DNA of 36,571 nt from Candidatus Doudnabacteria bacterium RIFCSPHIGHO2_02_FULL_42_25. GTDB taxonomy: Bacteria > Patescibacteriota > Doudnabacteria > UBA920 > O2-02-FULL-48-8. Both the position numbers and the translations under genes were made by a program. The notes below the pieces were generated by a model. That model was not told the origin of the DNA. It did no database searches and was given only the letters and a program-made list of their open reading frames with translations. The number at the start of each line of letters is the position of its first letter. Position 1 is the first letter of the stretch. The DNA lies in assembly GCA_001777665.1 (NCBI GenBank), contig MFEQ01000006.1, positions 90,309-126,879 on the forward strand, given 5' to 3'. Shown one piece after another: positions 12,004-36,571 of the stretch.

Positions 12004-12978
12004 CTATTTTCTTTTTACTACTCTCTTTACAGCAGCAACTATAGCCTTCGCGTCCATTCCCCATTTGGCGATCAGTTCATTAGGTTCGCCGGATTCCCCG
12101 AATTTGTCAGGCATGCCCACAAACTCTTGGGGTACTGGCAAATTTCTACTTAAAGCTTCGGCCACCGCTGAGCCAACTCCACCTGTAATCTGATGTTCTT
12201 CTGCTGTGACAATGCATTTGGTTTTTTTAACTGATTCAACGAGGGTTTGTTCGTCTAGGGGCTTAACAGATGCCACGTTGATGACTTCGCATTCAATTCC
12301 TTCTTTGGTTAATTGATCAGCGGCTTGCAGGGCATAGTAAACTTGAGCGCCAGCTGCAGCGATCGTCACATCTTTGCCTTCGCGGTAAACAAAAGCTTTT
12401 CCGATTTCAAACGGGGTTTCTTCAGTAGTGAATTGAGGAGTTTTTTCTCTGGCCAATCGAATATAAACAGGCCCATTATGTTTGGCAGCTGCTAAAGTCG
12501 CTTTGCGAGCTTCAATTGCGTCTGCTGGGACTAATACCGTCATTCGCGGCAATACGCGCGTGATCGCGATATCTTCCATTCCTTGATGAGTAGCTCCATC
12601 TGGACCCACAGAAATACCTGCGTGCGAACCGACGATTTTGACATTGTTGCCAGAATAACAAATCGAAACGCGAATTTGGTCCCAATTTCTTCCCGGAGAA
12701 AATGTCGCGTAGGAAGTTATAAACGGAATATAGCCTTCGTGAGCAAATCCAGCACCCAGTCCGGCTAAATTCTGTTCTGCTACTCCGACTTCGATAAACC
12801 GATCAGGGTACTGTTTAGAAAATTCAAGCATTCTAGTGGATTCGGTAAGGTCGCAACAAAGTCCGATAACTTTCGGATTTTCTTTGCCTAATATCAAAAG
12901 GCCTTCCCCGTATCCATTTCGGATCGGGACTTGTTTGATATCAGGAGCAAATAAATTGTCTATGAGTTTGACTGTCAT
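12004..12978 (-). CDS. Transketolase C-terminal subunit
   Basis: EVGVAEQN, GPDGATHQ, GPVYIRLAR, AEEHQITGG. Confidence 0.93.
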   Translation of the reverse strand: MTVKLIDNLFAPDIKQVPIRNGYGEGLLILGKENPKVIGLCCDLTESTRMLEFSKQYPDRFIEVGVAEQNLAGLGAGFAHEGYIPFITSYATFSPGRNWDQIRVSICYSGNNVKIVGSHAGISVGPDGATHQGMEDIAITRVLPRMTVLVPADAIEARKATLAAAKHNGPVYIRLAREKTPQFTTEETPFEIGKAFVYREGKDVTIAAAGAQVYYALQAADQLTKEGIECEVINVASVKPLDEQTLVESVKKTKCIVTAEEHQITGGVGSAVAEALSRNLPVPQEFVGMPDKFGESGEPNELIAKWGMDAKAIVAAVKRVVKRK

Positions 12979-13049: not shown

Positions 13050-13895
13050 TTATTCATGCTCACTCCTTATCTTCCCTCCAAGTGTTCTTAATTCATCCAA
13101 GGCTTTTTTGGCTTCATCTTTTTCAAAAACTTTACTATGCCATTCGTATCGATACTCCATGAAGTCCACACCTTTGCCGGGAATAGTGTGGCAAATAATT
13201 ACTGTGGGTTTTTCATAAATCGCTTTGGCTTGATTGCAAGCATCGATAATTTCGCGGATATTGTGACCATCAATTTCCAGGACATGCCAACCAAATGCCC
13301 TCCATTTATCAGCAAACGGCTCCAGCGGCATGATGTCTTCGGTATGACCGTCAATTTGAATGTTGTTGCGATCGATAAGTCCTGTTAGATTTCGCAGTTT
13401 GTATTTCGATGCAAACATCGCTGCTTCCCAAGTTTGTCCTTCTTCTTGTTCCCCGTCACTCATGACGCAGTAAACTCGCCAGGGCTGTTTTTTTAAAATC
13501 AAACCTGCATAAGCCATGGCTGCTGCTTGCGATAAACCTTGGCCCAGCGGGCCAGAAGAGTTTTCAATCCCAGGTAGAGCTTCATTGTGTGGATGCCCAT
13601 GAAGGCGTGTGCCTAATTTTCGAAGTGTCGCTAATTCACTAGTGGGGAAAAATCCGGCATGTGCCATAGTCGCATACCACACAGGGTTAATATGCCCGCA
13701 AGAAAGTACAAATCTGTCCCGACTCTCCATCTGAGGGTTCTTCGGATCATAGTTCATTACTCCGAAGTAAAGCGCAGTAAATACGTCGGCCATATCCAAA
13801 GGCCCGGCAACATGTCCTGATTTGGCGGAGACAAGCATCCTGATGATGTCTTGTCTGATTTCATTCGCTTTGAGTTCGAGCTGTTCTAAGTTCAT
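13050..13895 (-). CDS. Transketolase N-terminal (TPP-binding) subunit
   Basis: RDRFVLSCGH, LHGHP, GPLGQGLS, SDGEQEEG, DRNNIQIDG. Confidence 0.94.
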   Translation of the reverse strand: MNLEQLELKANEIRQDIIRMLVSAKSGHVAGPLDMADVFTALYFGVMNYDPKNPQMESRDRFVLSCGHINPVWYATMAHAGFFPTSELATLRKLGTRLHGHPHNEALPGIENSSGPLGQGLSQAAAMAYAGLILKKQPWRVYCVMSDGEQEEGQTWEAAMFASKYKLRNLTGLIDRNNIQIDGHTEDIMPLEPFADKWRAFGWHVLEIDGHNIREIIDACNQAKAIYEKPTVIICHTIPGKGVDFMEYRYEWHSKVFEKDEAKKALDELRTLGGKIRSEHE

Positions 13896-20353: not shown

Positions 20354-20380
20354 AAAGCAGCCTTAATGGGCTGTTTTTTT
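20354..20380 (+). terminator. Rho-independent terminator
   Basis: AAAGCAGCC-TTAATG-GGCTGTTTTTTT. Confidence 0.6.
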
Positions 20381-20944
20381 GTAATCACTTATAGCTTTCT
20401 GAATATCTTTAGAAACATTAGGAATGGTTTGATCACCATTAATCATTCTTAACTTTTTAAGTGATCGGAAATACTTTACTGTTTTACTAACTTGATTCTT
20501 CGTATAATCAATTCGATTCCAAACACCCTGATCTTCAGATTGGAGACGGGCCCGAGCTTTAGTCCTCGCTAAAATTTCTTTGGTCGGAATTTGTATATAG
20601 ATCACAAAAAAATCCCGTCTTTTTTGCTTAAATAATTTAACGAGCAATTGAGCTTCTGGTTTCAGCCTGGGATTGCCGATAAATATTAAATCTTTGTTCT
20701 TAGGTGCATTAGATAGATTTGAAATCAAAAATTTTTTCATCAACACTACTGGTGTTGGGTGGCCCAAAGACATTGTTCGACGCAGCCAAGCGCCATCCGC
20801 ATTCTTTTTCTTGGCCATCGCTCGCCAATGCTTGCCCGATTCAACTGCTTTTAAAGAGTACTTTTTCTTTAAAATTTCCGCGTGCGTATCTTTCCCAGCC
20901 GTCGGATCGCCTAATAAAATCAAATCAAATCCGAGTTTTTTCAT
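20363..20944 (-). CDS. Divergent adenylate-kinase-like protein
   Basis: LILLGDPTAGKDT P-loop variant, GNPR, INGDQTI. Confidence 0.8.
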   Translation of the reverse strand: MKKLGFDLILLGDPTAGKDTHAEILKKKYSLKAVESGKHWRAMAKKKNADGAWLRRTMSLGHPTPVVLMKKFLISNLSNAPKNKDLIFIGNPRLKPEAQLLVKLFKQKRRDFFVIYIQIPTKEILARTKARARLQSEDQGVWNRIDYTKNQVSKTVKYFRSLKKLRMINGDQTIPNVSKDIQKAISDYKKTAH

Positions 20945-21658: not shown

Positions 21659-21696
21659 AAAAAAAAAGCCGAGGGCAGGACGCTGTGATCCCCGGC
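21659..21696 (-). terminator. Rho-independent terminator of the inserted gene
   Basis: Minus strand GCCGGGGA...CCCTCGGC followed by T9. Confidence 0.65.
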
Positions 21697-33057: not shown

Positions 33058-33221
33058 CTTTACTAATTACGAATTTTTACCAATATACGAATGGGTTTTT
33101 AAAAAACCGACCAGATCCCCTTTAATAAAGAAACCTGGTCGGTTCTTCAAGATTGGCGATATCCTGGGGGATCTTGACCCAATCTATTCGTATATTCGTA
33201 CTGATTAGTAATTCGTAAAGT
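33058..33221. repeat. Modular inverted repeat copy 6 enclosing a two-hairpin structured segment
   Basis: Arms 33058-33092 and 33186-33221; inner stems 33105-33144 and 33150-33185. Confidence 0.85.
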
Positions 33222-33222
33222 T

Positions 33223-33546
33223 CTACATCTTAATCTCGACGTCGACACCAGCTGGCAAATTGAGATTACTCAATGCATCTATGGTTTTCGGAGTCGGAGA
33301 AGAGATATCAATCAATCGTTTATGGATGCGCATCTCGAATTGCTCACGTGCATTCTTGTGCACAAAAGTCGATTTGTTGACTGTGTATTTTGTCTTTTCC
33401 GTTGGAAGAGGAACTGGACCCAATACACCTGCACCAGTCCGCTTTGCTGTATCGACAATTTGGCGGGCTGATTGATCAATCAACTTGTGATCATATCCTC
33501 GAATTTTGATTCTTATTCTGCTGACTGCAGCAACTTCTTGAGCCAT
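33223..33546 (-). CDS. rpsJ: 30S ribosomal protein S10
   Basis: [32 protein letters not shown]. Confidence 0.98.
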
Positions 33547-33627: not shown

Positions 33628-34815
33628 TTACTTCGTGATTTTGTTTACAACTCCAGCACCGACAGTGTGTCCACCTTCGCGAATAGCGAAGCGCATCTTT
33701 TCTTCCAAAGCAACTGGGGTAATCAACTTGACTTTGAGGGAAACAGTGTCTCCAGGCATGACCATTTCTTGACCTGCTGGCAATTCAACTTCTCCGGTTA
33801 CGTCTGTAGTTCGGATGTAGAATTGAGGCTTATAACCTTTGAAGAATGGAGTATGACGTCCGCCTTCTTCTTTGGTCAAAATATAAACTTCTGCATCAAA
33901 TTCAGTGTGAGGAGTAACTGATCCTGGTTTACACAAGACTTGTCCGCGTTCTACTTCATCTTTTTTGGTTCCGCGGAGCAAGATACCTGCGTTGTCACCA
34001 GCGCGTCCTTCATCCAATTGCTTGTTGAACATCTCAATACCAGTGACCACTGTTTTGACAGTTGGGCGGATACCGACGATTTCAATTTCTTCGTTGATTT
34101 TGATCATTCCACGTTCGATTCTTCCGGTGACTACAGTTCCTCGTCCTTCGATGGAGAAGATGTCTTCGATAGGCATCAAAAATGGTTTATCAATTTCACG
34201 AACTGGTTCAGGGATGTAAGAATCCAAATTTTCAATCAATTTGAGAATTGAAGCTTCGCCGATTTCGGAAGTATCACCTTCCAAAGCTTTCAAAGCTGAT
34301 CCTCGAACGATAGGGGTATCTTTTCCTGGAAAACCGTATTTGGTCAGTAAATCTCGGATTTCTTCTTCGACTAAGTCTAGTAATTCTTTATCATCAACCA
34401 TATCTACTTTGTTCATGTAGACGACGATGTAAGGAACTCCGACCTGTTTGGCCAGAAGAATGTGTTCTCGAGTTTGAGGCATAGGGCCGTCAGCTGCTGA
34501 CACGACCAAAATCGCACCATCCATCTGGGCGGCACCGGTGATCATGTTTTTGACATAGTCAGCGTGTCCCGGACAGTCGACGTGGGCGTAGTGACGCTTG
34601 TCAGATTCGTATTCTGCGTGAGAAGTATTAATAGTAATACCACGGGCCTTTTCTTCAGGAGCGTTGTCGATAGAATCGTAGGCGCGTGCTTTGGCTTTGC
34701 CTGATTTTGCTAAAACTGTGGTGATAGCAGCAGTCAAAGTGGTTTTGCCGTGGTCAACGTGACCGATGGTTCCGACGTTGACGTGAGGCTTGGAACGATC
34801 GAATTTTTCTGCCAT
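33628..34815 (-). CDS. tuf: Elongation factor Tu
   Basis: [31 protein letters not shown]; start MAEKFDRSK at 34815. Confidence 0.99.
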
Positions 34816-34955
34816 TTTACTGGCCTTTCCGGTGATTTTTAAGTGGTATCCAGTCCTCCCGAGCCTTAACAAAAACCCCATTTTGCGGGGGTTTAGCCAA
34901 GTTCAGGATGACGCCTGACTCAAAAACCGCCAATAATTAATTTACATGCCTAACG

Positions 34956-34984
34956 ATTATAGAGGATTTGGGGCAGTTTGTAAA
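34956..34984 (-). promoter_or_regulatory. tuf promoter
   Basis: Minus strand TTTACA-N17-TATAAT. Confidence 0.7.
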
Positions 34985-35057
34985 GGGTTTAGGTGTCTGT
35001 GGATAAACTAGCTTAAATTCTATAAATCAGATATTCTTATCTTATTGGGAGGGTTTA

Positions 35058-35183
35058 ATGGCCGATGATGAAGGACAATGGTGGCTCGGAATTATTGCGA
35101 TTGCGGCGATCATCGCAACTGCTCTCATCGGGCGAGATTGGGTACATCAGCTGATCGCCGGTGTAGCCGCAATCAGCAACTAG
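35058..35183 (+). CDS. Membrane micro-protein, 41 aa
   Basis: SD GGGAGG; MADDEGQWWLGIIAIAAIIATALIGRDWVHQLIAGVAAISN. Confidence 0.6.
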   Translation: MADDEGQWWLGIIAIAAIIATALIGRDWVHQLIAGVAAISN

Positions 35184-35200
35184 AAAAATCGGGAGGAACT

Positions 35201-35263
35201 ATGAGAAAAACGGGAAAGAAAAAGCCCAAGAACGGCTGGCCGATCTTCGGCTTTGGAGAGTAA
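35201..35263 (+). CDS. Basic peptide, 20 aa
   Basis: SD GGGAGG; MRKTGKKKPKNGWPIFGFGE. Confidence 0.4.
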   Translation: MRKTGKKKPKNGWPIFGFGE

Positions 35264-35284
35264 ACCGCCAACTCTGTCCGCCAT

Positions 35285-35323
35285 CCACCAAAGCATGAAT
35301 CCACGCCTCGGTGGCTTTTTTTT
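35285..35323 (+). terminator. Conserved two-stem terminator-like element A
   Basis: CCACC AAA GCATGAATCCACGC CTC GGTGG C T8. Confidence 0.65.
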
Positions 35324-35365
35324 ATATGCAAATAGGAGTAATCTTATGACTAGGAGAGGACTATA

Positions 35366-35503
35366 TTGCTAGTGACACTGACCGAGCTTCTCAACAATCT
35401 GCCCAAATACTTCTGGCTCGTTGCAGGAATTGGAACAGTCAGCATCGTGGTGGTCTTAGGACTCATCGCGAAAGTCCATAAAGATTGGGACGGAATCCGT
35501 TAA
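35366..35503 (+). CDS. Membrane micro-protein, 45 aa (TTG start)
   Basis: SD AGGAGAGGA; MLVTLTELLNNLPKYFWLVAGIGTVSIVVVLGLIAKVHKDWDGIR. Confidence 0.55.
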   Translation: MLVTLTELLNNLPKYFWLVAGIGTVSIVVVLGLIAKVHKDWDGIR

Positions 35504-35527
35504 CAAAGTAACTTTAAGGAGGAAATC

Positions 35528-35848
35528 ATGGAGTGGATCTGGTTTGTGCTTGCTGTACTAACTGGCCTCTACGCTTTCGGGTACCACTGTGCGTTGCGTT
35601 TCGCCACTGGCACATGGGATTACTCGAGTGAGCTTCATGACTCGGCGATGCATTTGTGTTTGAATGCAGGTGCATTCCCCGGCTGCTTCCGAAGAATCGC
35701 TTCAGGGTGGGGCTCCTTCACCATCTTCTCTCTGATATTCCTATCCGAGGGTAGAATTGCAGCAGCACTTGCGATTGCTGCCTTCATGGCGATCCTCGTA
35801 GGAATCCATATCTATTTCAACCGGTTCAGACCGGAGCTCAATCTATAA
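35528..35848 (+). CDS. Small membrane protein, 106 aa
   Basis: SD TAAGGAGG; about 3 hydrophobic segments. Confidence 0.7.
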   Translation: MEWIWFVLAVLTGLYAFGYHCALRFATGTWDYSSELHDSAMHLCLNAGAFPGCFRRIASGWGSFTIFSLIFLSEGRIAAALAIAAFMAILVGIHIYFNRFRPELNL

Positions 35849-35886
35849 CCACCAACACGTGATCAAACGCAGCGGTGGCTTTTTTT
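35849..35886 (+). terminator. Conserved two-stem terminator-like element B
   Basis: CCACC AAC ACGTGATCAAACGC AGC GGTGG C T7. Confidence 0.65.
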
Positions 35887-35975
35887 ATTTCTAAACTGTA
35901 TGCTTATAATGTAATCGGGAGGAATGAATAGTAGCTTAGACGCGATCTAACCGGCTAAACATTCAGGAGGTTGCT

Positions 35976-36044
35976 ATGTCGATTGGAAAAATGATCGCCG
36001 TCGCCCTGCTCATCTCGTCGTGGGTCTCTCTATTTGTCGGCTGA
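35976..36044 (+). CDS. Hydrophobic peptide, 22 aa
   Basis: SD AGGAGG; MSIGKMIAVALLISSWVSLFVG. Confidence 0.45.
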   Translation: MSIGKMIAVALLISSWVSLFVG

Positions 36045-36070
36045 AGTCGACTCTCGACCACGCTCCCCCT

Positions 36071-36109
36071 CCACCAAAGCATTCCCCAAATGCCTAGGTG
36101 GCTTTTTTT
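36071..36109 (+). terminator. Conserved two-stem terminator-like element C
   Basis: CCACC AAA GCATTCCCCAAATGC CTA GGTGG C T7; extended -10 TGCTATAAT follows at 36119. Confidence 0.65.
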
Positions 36110-36156
36110 ATGGCAAATTGCTATAATCCATTGAACTCGAATCCGGAGGGAATCAA

Positions 36157-36471
36157 ATGAAAGGAACTGTCAAAAGAAACCCTAAGACCGAGGTCAACTA
36201 CCCCAGCAAAACATACACTGCATCAAATGAAGTGAGAAGCGACTTGTATCGGGGCTATGGTTGTGGTGTCTTCAGTCGTTATACGTGGAGTTCGTACTTC
36301 CAAGGCACAGCAGATCTCACTACACGACGCGTAGTGGATAGCCACAAGAGTTGCTGCCAGTCTTGCAAAGCGTTCCACAAATTAGAGTCCAAAGTCACAC
36401 GAAAAAAAGCGAAAGGACATTCTCGACGTAGACGTGACCGTGCTGGCAAAGCAGTTCAAAAAAAACGATGA
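36157..36471 (+). CDS. Basic, Cys-containing hypothetical protein
   Basis: SD GGAGGG; GCG...CCQSC; Lys/Arg-rich tail. Confidence 0.65.
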   Translation: MKGTVKRNPKTEVNYPSKTYTASNEVRSDLYRGYGCGVFSRYTWSSYFQGTADLTTRRVVDSHKSCCQSCKAFHKLESKVTRKKAKGHSRRRRDRAGKAVQKKR

Positions 36472-36490
36472 CTAACCAGGAGGAAAACTA

Positions 36491-36571
36491 TTGGCACTTC
36501 GTCATGATTGGGGTCTACGAGCCCTTCGTGGTTACAAGCTTGCACAACCGTTCTATGAGGCTCATCCGGAA
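36491..36571 (+). CDS. Hypothetical protein, 5' part (TTG start, runs off the window)
   Basis: SD AGGAGG; MALRHDWGLRALRGYKLAQPFYEAHP... Confidence 0.45.
   Translation, partial: MALRHDWGLRALRGYKLAQPFYEAHPE

Follow-up and report, generated by a model that had tools for sequence, protein, structure and literature searches.

The last 1.5 kb of the window examined here, by which is meant the whole 36,571-nt stretch of contig MFEQ01000006.1, probably represents a species-specific accessory islet of small orphan genes in a variable flank of tuf, its mini-operons apparently closed by intrinsic terminators that are siblings of one another. The islet consists of six complete open reading frames (ORFs) and one that is open at the window end, all co-oriented on the plus strand, opposite to the ribosomal-protein operons, and the analysis covers the window up to position 36571. 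Three hairpin elements, called A, B, and C, lie among these ORFs; because they have terminator anatomy and stand at unit ends, the array can be parsed into ORF41 and ORF20, element A, ORF45 and ORF106, element B, ORF22, element C, and ORF104 with what follows it, which would give at least four short self-contained units (ORF41 with ORF20, ORF45 with ORF106, ORF22 alone, and ORF104 with the next ORF). The host is an uncultured Patescibacterium, and its Tuf is most closely matched in metagenome-assembled genomes that bear the label Doudnabacteria.

Each ORF of the islet is preceded by a strong Shine-Dalgarno (SD) motif, and the genes within a unit are 17-24 nt apart or overlapping. Unit 1 opens with ORF41 (35058-35183, plus strand), which encodes an acidic, single-pass hydrophobic product of 41 amino acids (aa; hydropathy segment 6-29) and has the SD GGGAGGG 4 nt upstream; its second gene, ORF20 (35201-35263, plus strand), encodes a basic 20-aa peptide (isoelectric point, pI, 10.6), and its SD, GGGAGG, is contained in the 12-mer AATCGGGAGGAA. 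Unit 2 comprises ORF45 (35366-35503, plus strand; 45 aa), which starts with TTG and encodes a single-pass hydrophobic product (hydropathy segment 14-38) ending in a charged C-terminus, and ORF106 (35528-35848, plus strand; 106 aa), whose SD is AAGGAGG and whose product, a predicted membrane protein, is hydrophobic over segments 1-19 and 66-98. A possible upstream ORF of eight codons (35347-35373, plus strand), read from the sequence and provided with an SD (AGGAG) 8 nt upstream, overlaps the SD and start of ORF45. The sole gene of unit 3, ORF22 (35976-36044, plus strand; SD AGGAGG), encodes a 22-aa peptide that is hydrophobic throughout (hydropathy segment 1-22; grand average of hydropathy, GRAVY, 1.77). 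A second eight-codon mini-ORF is present near the 5' end of this unit (35923-35949), its start only 1 nt past an SD-like GGAGG.

Unit 4 begins with ORF104 (36157-36471, plus strand; SD GGAGGG), whose 104-aa product is very basic (pI 10.5; 27 lysine and arginine residues) and includes four cysteines, the translation reading C36 ... H63-x3-C67-x2-C70. Its second gene is the last ORF (36468-36571, plus strand), open at the window end, for which two starts come into question: ATG 36468 is without an SD, overlaps the ORF104 stop in an ATGA, and is associated with a G+C content at third codon positions (GC3) of 0.76, and TTG 36491 has the SD AGGAGG 7 nt upstream; codon statistics do not separate the two. 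The products of the array would accordingly number, apart from the open frame, four hydrophobic or membrane peptides (from ORF41, ORF45, ORF22, and ORF106), one basic 20-mer (ORF20), and one basic Cys/His protein (ORF104).

With the last ORF read from TTG 36491, a 5-mer SD core lies 5-9 nt ahead of all seven starts, and SD-led ORFs of at least 20 aa number seven on the islet plus strand and one on its minus strand; in 500 dinucleotide shuffles the count averaged 0.6 and never exceeded 4, and the 134 other 1563-nt windows, counted on both strands, reached at most 2. The annotated frame has the best codon score among the six frames in five of the six complete ORFs, ORF20 being the one that gives no clear result, and the 99 % variants of ORF106 and ORF104 that occur in other assemblies retain an unbroken frame. 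On the strength of the SD excess, the codon frame, and the intact variants, the ORFs look real, and they may be translated. The sequence-only reading of this DNA, which had counted at least seven co-oriented small SD-led ORFs and had called four of them hydrophobic, is borne out on both points. The 12-mer AATCGGGAGGAA around the SD occurs in two exact and two near copies, all of them in the islet; since the pattern was defined after the copies had been seen, its statistic is inflated.

This style of translation initiation stands apart from that of the core genes in the same window. A suitably spaced 5-mer SD precedes 1/46 core genes as against 7/7 islet starts, where the start of each core gene was taken as the first start codon of its ORF (for tuf, ATG 34881; the homology-based tuf start at 34815 is likewise without an SD). 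The core count becomes 2/46 if any start codon in the first 40 codons is allowed, and under a looser SD definition it becomes 4/46, which still differs from the islet (Fisher p = 2e-6). On the plus strand, GGAGG itself is found seven times in the 1.57-kb islet, compared with 12 times in the remaining 35 kb. Core genes (537-34815, minus strand), including tuf and all ribosomal-protein genes, display A/T-rich upstream regions instead of an SD, and the sole SD-bearing core gene is the second adk paralogue (20363-20944). Composition changes at the same place: the G+C content (GC) of the window is about 0.41 throughout and climbs to 0.47 over the last 1.5 kb, the islet value of 0.475 exceeds that of all 134 other windows (0.413 +/- 0.015), and GC3, which is 0.38 for the core genes, lies at 0.43 for ORF104 and at 0.55-0.70 for the five other complete islet ORFs. 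The contrast in GC, GC3, and SD use with the core genes suggests that the islet DNA may have been acquired from an SD-using source.

The three elements that separate the units are equally particular to the islet. On the two strands of the whole window, the motif CCACCAA-N15-22-GGTGGCTTTTT has just three matches (35285-35320, 35849-35884, and 36071-36107), the expected number from 100 shuffles being 0.00; the looser form CCACC-N3-26-GGTGG-N0-1-T5 retrieves the same three matches only within the window and is absent from both strands of 1.237 Mb of related tuf loci (80 loci, described below). Element A (35285-35323, plus strand; -9.6 kcal/mol) is composed of a hairpin (35285-35314), a C, and T8, lies 21 nt past the ORF20 stop, and folds into an outer CCACC/GGTGG helix, a 3x3 internal loop, and an inner stem with one mismatch. 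Element B (35849-35886, plus strand; -10.4 kcal/mol, z -2.2) starts 0 nt past the ORF106 stop and consists of a hairpin (35849-35878), a C, and T7. Element C (36071-36109, plus strand) lies 26 nt past the ORF22 stop and is likewise built from a hairpin (36071-36101), a C, and T7, with a centroid energy of -11.4 (-11.4/-11.8) kcal/mol. All three adopt one fold, in which an internal loop separates an outer helix of 5 bp from an inner helix of 3-5 bp, with energies of about -9.5 to -11.3 kcal/mol. The elements are 30-31 nt long, none lies inside an ORF, and none occurs between the genes of one unit.

When the three copies are aligned, all five outer pairs are invariant and variation is limited to the inner helix and the loop. 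Elements A and C have TCCACCAAAGCAT in common, and their similarity extends through the T-tract into TTTTTTTAT-GCAAAT. The existence of three islet elements of the form CCACCAA...GGTGG-C-T7/8, and the sequence common to A and C, had been recognized by the sequence-only reading and hold up; its claim of a conserved internal loop is correct for the 5' side (AAA/AAC/AAA) and fails for the 3' side (CTC/AGC/CTA), and the compensatory variation that it saw in the inner stem comes down to one pair with a double change, beside two non-pairs, a degree of covariation that 339/500 column shuffles equal and that carries no statistical weight. Nor does its proposal that the element is more than a terminator find favor, as the elements agree with an intrinsic terminator in position and strand as well as in hairpin and T-tract: in each case a G+C-rich hairpin followed by a T-tract lies 3' of a gene end, in the orientation of the gene and outside coding sequence. 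Termination depends on the stem base and the U-tract, and it is precisely the stem base and the T-tract that are conserved, the rest having drifted in the manner expected of diverged copies of one terminator.

In the arrangement that we favor, units 1-3 would each be closed by a Rho-independent terminator of shared design, and A, B, and C would most likely be copies of one ancestral terminator module, with or without a promoter, in which the stem base and U-tract stayed identical while the inner stem and loop drifted. Units 3 and 4 would begin with a -10 box shortly past the preceding T-tract. The candidate promoter of unit 3, a -10-like box read from the sequence (TGCTTATAAT, 35901-35910, plus strand), lies 15 nt past the T-tract of element B, and that of unit 4, an extended -10 box (TGCTATAAT, 36119-36127, plus strand), lies 10 nt past the T-tract of element C. 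Compared with ordinary intrinsic terminators, the islet elements differ in being neighbors with an identical 5-bp stem base, AA bulge side, and C spacer, and in having stems interrupted by a 3x3 (in B, 4x4) internal loop. The terminator-like hairpins of the host on the minus strand (after rpsJ, at -22.5 kcal/mol; after secY; and at 21667) have contiguous stems of unrelated sequence. In the library searched, no publication was found that brings Patescibacteria and 'intrinsic terminator' together.

The islet ORFs are orphans. Pfam, PHROGs, PADLOC, and NCBIfam gave no significant match for any of them, tblastn of the seven against the 80 related tuf loci gave none at E < 0.1, and none emerged when 50,697 phage records and 72,556 plasmids were searched with blastn and tblastn. 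Among 5.8 billion proteins, ORF106 has a single 99 % variant (S34C, on a contig of 14,346 bp) and ORF104 a single 99 % variant (Q49K, on a contig of 43,004 bp). The sole database match of ORF45 (98 %, 45 aa, no source listed) is found on two contigs, the longest of 344,722 bp, and is read as the window's own sequence; the record suggests that the window forms part of a long contig. An exhaustive phmmer search of ORF106 against 1.84 billion representatives returned one weak extra match (P0003, E 2.5e-4, 2350 aa, in five stretches), which was set aside as hydrophobic-segment noise. Sequence searches of the PDB with ORF104 and ORF106 yielded chance-level matches only, and a scan for related loci carrying ORF104 produced 313 pattern matches, 0 of which were confirmed.

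ORF104 has one lead: its Atlas neighbors are clusters in which some members carry zf-HC2 (feature score 0.88, TM 0.51, model pLDDT 0.48). The H-x3-C-x2-C motif with an upstream fourth ligand agrees with the zf-HC2 (ZAS-type anti-sigma) spacing, as in RsrA; against zf-HC2 (PF13490), ORF104 gave no Pfam match even at E <= 10, and no anti-sigma sequence was matched in the PDB, so that a putative ZAS-type assignment is only a lead. For ORF106, no Atlas neighbor scores above 0.85, and the first, a viral cluster, stands at that value, below the 0.9 mark.

That the tuf flank is a variable spot in this lineage emerges from comparison with relatives. A scan with Tuf residues 231-280, restricted to one genome per species, assembled 80 related loci (1.237 Mb, mostly Patescibacteria); the species of the window is not among them, the best match being 90 % over 50 aa, and full-length Tuf identities are 88 % (locus L050), 87.6 % (L017), 87.4 % (L010), and 85.8 % (L006), of which L010 and L006 are labelled Candidatus Doudnabacteria. 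In 51/80 loci, fusA is located upstream of tuf and shares its strand. The intervening gap measures 45-104 bp in nine loci, all except L016 labelled non-Patescibacteria, and 166-8469 bp in the other 42; no tRNA genes were found in the gaps of the 33 loci scanned. In 21 of the 42 loci with a gap of at least 166 bp (L024, L040, L005, L031, L015, L039, and 15 more), a small ORF sits just upstream of tuf that is conserved, co-oriented, and Phd/YefM-like at its N-terminus, with a Pfam match in 3/7 scanned, all below the cut-off; the window has no such ORF.

The four nearest relatives each carry cargo of another kind. In L010, the 4.3 kb between fusA and tuf (L010:3265-7614) hold an rve-like ORF (32.2 bits against a cut-off of 32.6), an NTP_transf_2/HepT toxin-antitoxin-like pair, and others, and the interval from tuf to rpsJ (L010:8811-10660) adds another 1.85 kb of cargo that is low in GC and unrelated. 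In L017, an opposite-strand islet of 1.6 kb occupies the space between tuf and rpsJ (L017:1640-3110), with a consensus promoter and two SD-led ORFs, one of 109 aa with a basic tail and one of 207 aa that is TPR-like, each with its own hairpin-T6 terminator. In L006, one SD-led (AAGGAGG) ORF of 125 aa with an N-terminal hydrophobic segment and a T8 terminator is divergent from tuf (GC3 0.63 against 0.50 for tuf), and L050 has a different co-oriented ORF beside tuf. The contigs of many relatives end within 1 kb upstream of tuf, many of them (L017, L002, L007, L027, L018, L009, L075, and others) within a few hundred bases, where strain-variable sequence may be breaking the assemblies.

SD-led, self-terminated, opposite-strand accessory genes do recur at tuf flanks, their sequences and terminators being unrelated. 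Relatives, too, have core genes poor in SD. The two islet ORFs of L017 are the only SD-led ones among its 16 long ORFs, and counts of a spaced SD among ORFs of at least 100 aa were 0/22 in L010, 0/27 in L001, 0/25 in L064, 0/24 in L012, 2/16 in L017, and 5/26 in L006, beside 7/14 in a Bacilli locus. A separate candidate, that ORF104 belongs to a family shared among tuf flanks, was dropped after comparison with the 125-aa ORF of L006 (E 2.9) and the 109-aa ORF of L017 (E 3.0), neither of them significant. The view of the sequence-only reading that a cassette-like accessory array lies beside tuf and runs past the window end is sustained, as far as a modular and lineage-specific array is concerned, by orphan ORFs, a motif absent from the related loci, and other cargo in relatives. 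An observation of a different sort concerns the space between fusA and the divergent small ORF of L006, where a 115-nt element (L006:8483-8597) adopts a three-way fold with a 15-bp closing helix (z -9.0 on one strand and -8.0 on the other); Rfam offers no match to it, and it occurs in no other of the 80 loci.

Several results count against the interpretation of the array as terminated mini-operons of acquired genes. The hairpins of A-C are modest beside the host rpsJ terminator (-22.5 kcal/mol), a C separates the stem from the T-tract in all elements, and two of the three folds are no stabler than shuffles (z -0.5 and -0.9). The identical stems of three neighboring terminators are put down to descent, which three copies cannot prove. 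As to promoters, the extended -10 motif occurs twice in the window against 1.5 expected, which is not significant, the two-hexamer promoter scan misses both the TGCTTATAAT and the TGCTATAAT boxes, and units 1 and 2 are without a convincing promoter. As the ORFs have no homologues, the coding case consists only of SD sites, frame statistics, and the intactness of near-identical copies. Lastly, the dinucleotide signature of the islet is ordinary, 39/134 windows deviating as much; a host-like signature weakens a recent foreign origin and tempers the idea of an SD-using source.

Among other explanations, it is conceivable, though unlikely, that the window reaches the border of a mobile element, such as an integrated phage, of which the islet would be an early, 'host-takeover'-like or moron-like region. 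GC, GC3, and SD use deviate from those of the core genes, the ORFs are orphans, a frequent condition among phage early genes, and the first Atlas neighbor of ORF106 is viral, although its score of 0.85 is below the 0.9 mark. Transcription signals of their own and a GC unlike that of neighboring genes are features by which phage morons are described (PMC2920897), and the islet resembles them in its candidate promoters and terminators, its odd GC, and its location in an insertion hotspot with other cargo in relatives; it differs in being flanked by tuf, with no prophage in the window, no PHROG or phage match, and a single element type. SPO1's host-takeover module, characterized (PMC6873191) by mostly small genes, short operons, and strong promoters and ribosome-binding sites (RBS), is resembled by the dense small genes, short operons, strong RBS, and candidate promoters of the islet, which nevertheless shows no sequence similarity to that module, has a Patescibacterium host, and includes nothing showing phage origin or toxicity. 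The window contains no phage gene, no tRNA, and no att-like repeat, no integrase domain was detected among the 28 window ORFs scanned, PHROGs gave nothing significant for the seven islet ORFs, and nothing was matched in the 50,697 phage records and 72,556 plasmids by blastn or tblastn. Phages of an SD-poor host would, moreover, be expected to mimic host signals, and the dinucleotide signature is host-like.

A narrower proposal, that ORF41, ORF45, and ORF22 encode type I-toxin-like membrane peptides, each confined to a tightly terminated unit with partner genes or antisense RNAs as antidotes, appears quite improbable. The peptides are like type I toxins in being small, in having one hydrophobic helix, and, in ORF45, in bearing a charged tail, and loci such as Ldr, Ibs, Fst, and TxpA are the natural comparison, since the islet likewise has tandem, separately terminated units and hydrophobic peptides of 22-45 aa. 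All three peptides are shorter than 60 aa with a single hydrophobic segment each, ORF45 has a charged tail, and an antisense promoter-like site with 9/12 matches lies within ORF41 (35118-35091). Yet no toxin-family match was returned by Pfam, NCBIfam, PADLOC, or PHROGs, no hairpin with a T-tract is available on the minus strand of units 1-3 to end an antisense RNA, and the unit-3 mRNA fold is ordinary, without SD sequestering (z -0.6); the peptides are mutually dissimilar, only short DNA repeats being common to them, and many small membrane proteins are non-toxins. It is more doubtful still that the ORFs are not genes or that the tuf junction is an assembly chimera, even though they have no homologues beyond near-identical copies, composition and SD use are sharply unlike the rest of the window, and many contigs of relatives break just upstream of tuf. 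The SD-led ORF count is far over that of shuffles, a frame-specific codon signal is present, the putative terminators stand exactly at unit ends, and the dinucleotide signature is host-like; ORF45 is on two contigs, and others carry the variants of ORF104 (43,004 bp) and ORF106 (14,346 bp), and the occurrence of the ORF45 sequence on a 344,722-bp contig disfavors a contig-end chimera. Least credible, to the point of being nearly negligible, is the notion that the elements are recombination sites, integron attC-like or other, and the units mobile cassettes. The array does share with integron arrays co-oriented units of unrelated content with a repeated imperfect palindrome between them, the tuf flank varies among relatives, and the rve-like gene of L010 (32.2 bits, cut-off 32.6) occupies the corresponding place. 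However, attC sites are about 57-141 nt long with inverse cores RYYYAAC ... GTTRRRY and extrahelical bases, and integron cassettes are mostly promoterless and read from Pc, whereas the islet elements are 30-31 nt, are without GTTRRRY/RYYYAAC-type inverse cores, and are each joined to a T-tract, solely on the coding strand, and units carry candidate -10 boxes (a -10-like box follows two of the elements). An integron also has an adjacent intI tyrosine recombinase with attI and Pc. With no recombinase or integrase domain among the 28 window ORFs scanned, the motif absent from 1.24 Mb of related loci, and covariation not above chance, the integron analogy put forward in the sequence-only reading is not supported.

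If the islet is indeed a set of orphan accessory genes with their own terminators, it would be an object of an ordinary kind in an under-studied phylum. The presence of two translation-initiation styles within 36 kb of one chromosome offers a handle on whether SD motifs are still read in SD-poor lineages. The anti-SD motif is given as present in only 48 % of Parcubacteria in a published survey (PMC9297842); an Rfam scan located no 16S rRNA in the window, so the window does not show the anti-SD of the host. A parallel is furnished by SD-bearing genes in SD-blind lineages, as in the rpsU case of the Bacteroidia, where a few genes likewise have a strong SD and the core genes are without one (PMC7797042, PMC9976891, PMC13000453), with the difference that the present host may keep, hide, or lack the anti-SD. 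One far-reaching reading, a long shot, makes the islet a set of small genes strictly dependent on SD within a genome whose core translation (SD at 1/46 core genes) does without it. A bolder pair of ideas built on it, both of them long shots as well, is that a masked or conditionally exposed anti-SD makes the islet part of a switchable SD regulon and that a self-copying 'expression cassette frame' operates beside tuf. Were the anti-SD masked as in Bacteroidia, translation of the islet would be controlled through the ribosome's state; were the frame (terminator, T-tract, -10 box, and AATCGGGAGGAA-type ribosome site) real, lineages could domesticate micro-genes beside tuf, a possible lineage habit at which the SD-led tuf-flank islets of L006 and L017 hint. 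The islet also adds to the evidence from relatives that lineage-specific cargo repeatedly lands in the flanks of tuf in these reduced genomes, and its micro-proteins, if membrane-active or regulatory, would be candidate symbiont-host interaction factors.

The remainder of the window (2-34,815) is core chromosome of a small-genome bacterium, with nearly all genes on the minus strand. Its Pfam content includes murA/murB, recJ, glycolysis and pentose-phosphate genes, htrA, map, two adk paralogues, and secY, after which come the spc and S10 ribosomal-protein operons, then rpsJ (33223-33546) and tuf (33628-34815, minus strand; identified by homology, with an upstream in-frame ATG at 34881). No Rfam family reached its gathering threshold anywhere in the window, the one chance-level match (E = 3) falling in the islet, and a scan of the window for tRNA and tmRNA genes found none. 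A promoter-like site with 11/12 matches, TTTACA-17-TATAAT (34956-34984, minus strand), is directed toward tuf and away from the islet. Between this near-consensus site and the start codon, the tuf leader includes a short hairpin followed by T5 (34876-34890, minus strand; CCCCG...GGGG TTTTT), which could be an attenuator. The rpsJ-rplC spacer (33107-33142, minus strand) contains a 16-bp hairpin of -22.5 kcal/mol with T6, within what is usually one operon. Elsewhere in the core region, transketolase is split into two genes, one for the N-terminal part (13050-13895) and one for the pyrimidine-binding/C-terminal part (12004-12978).

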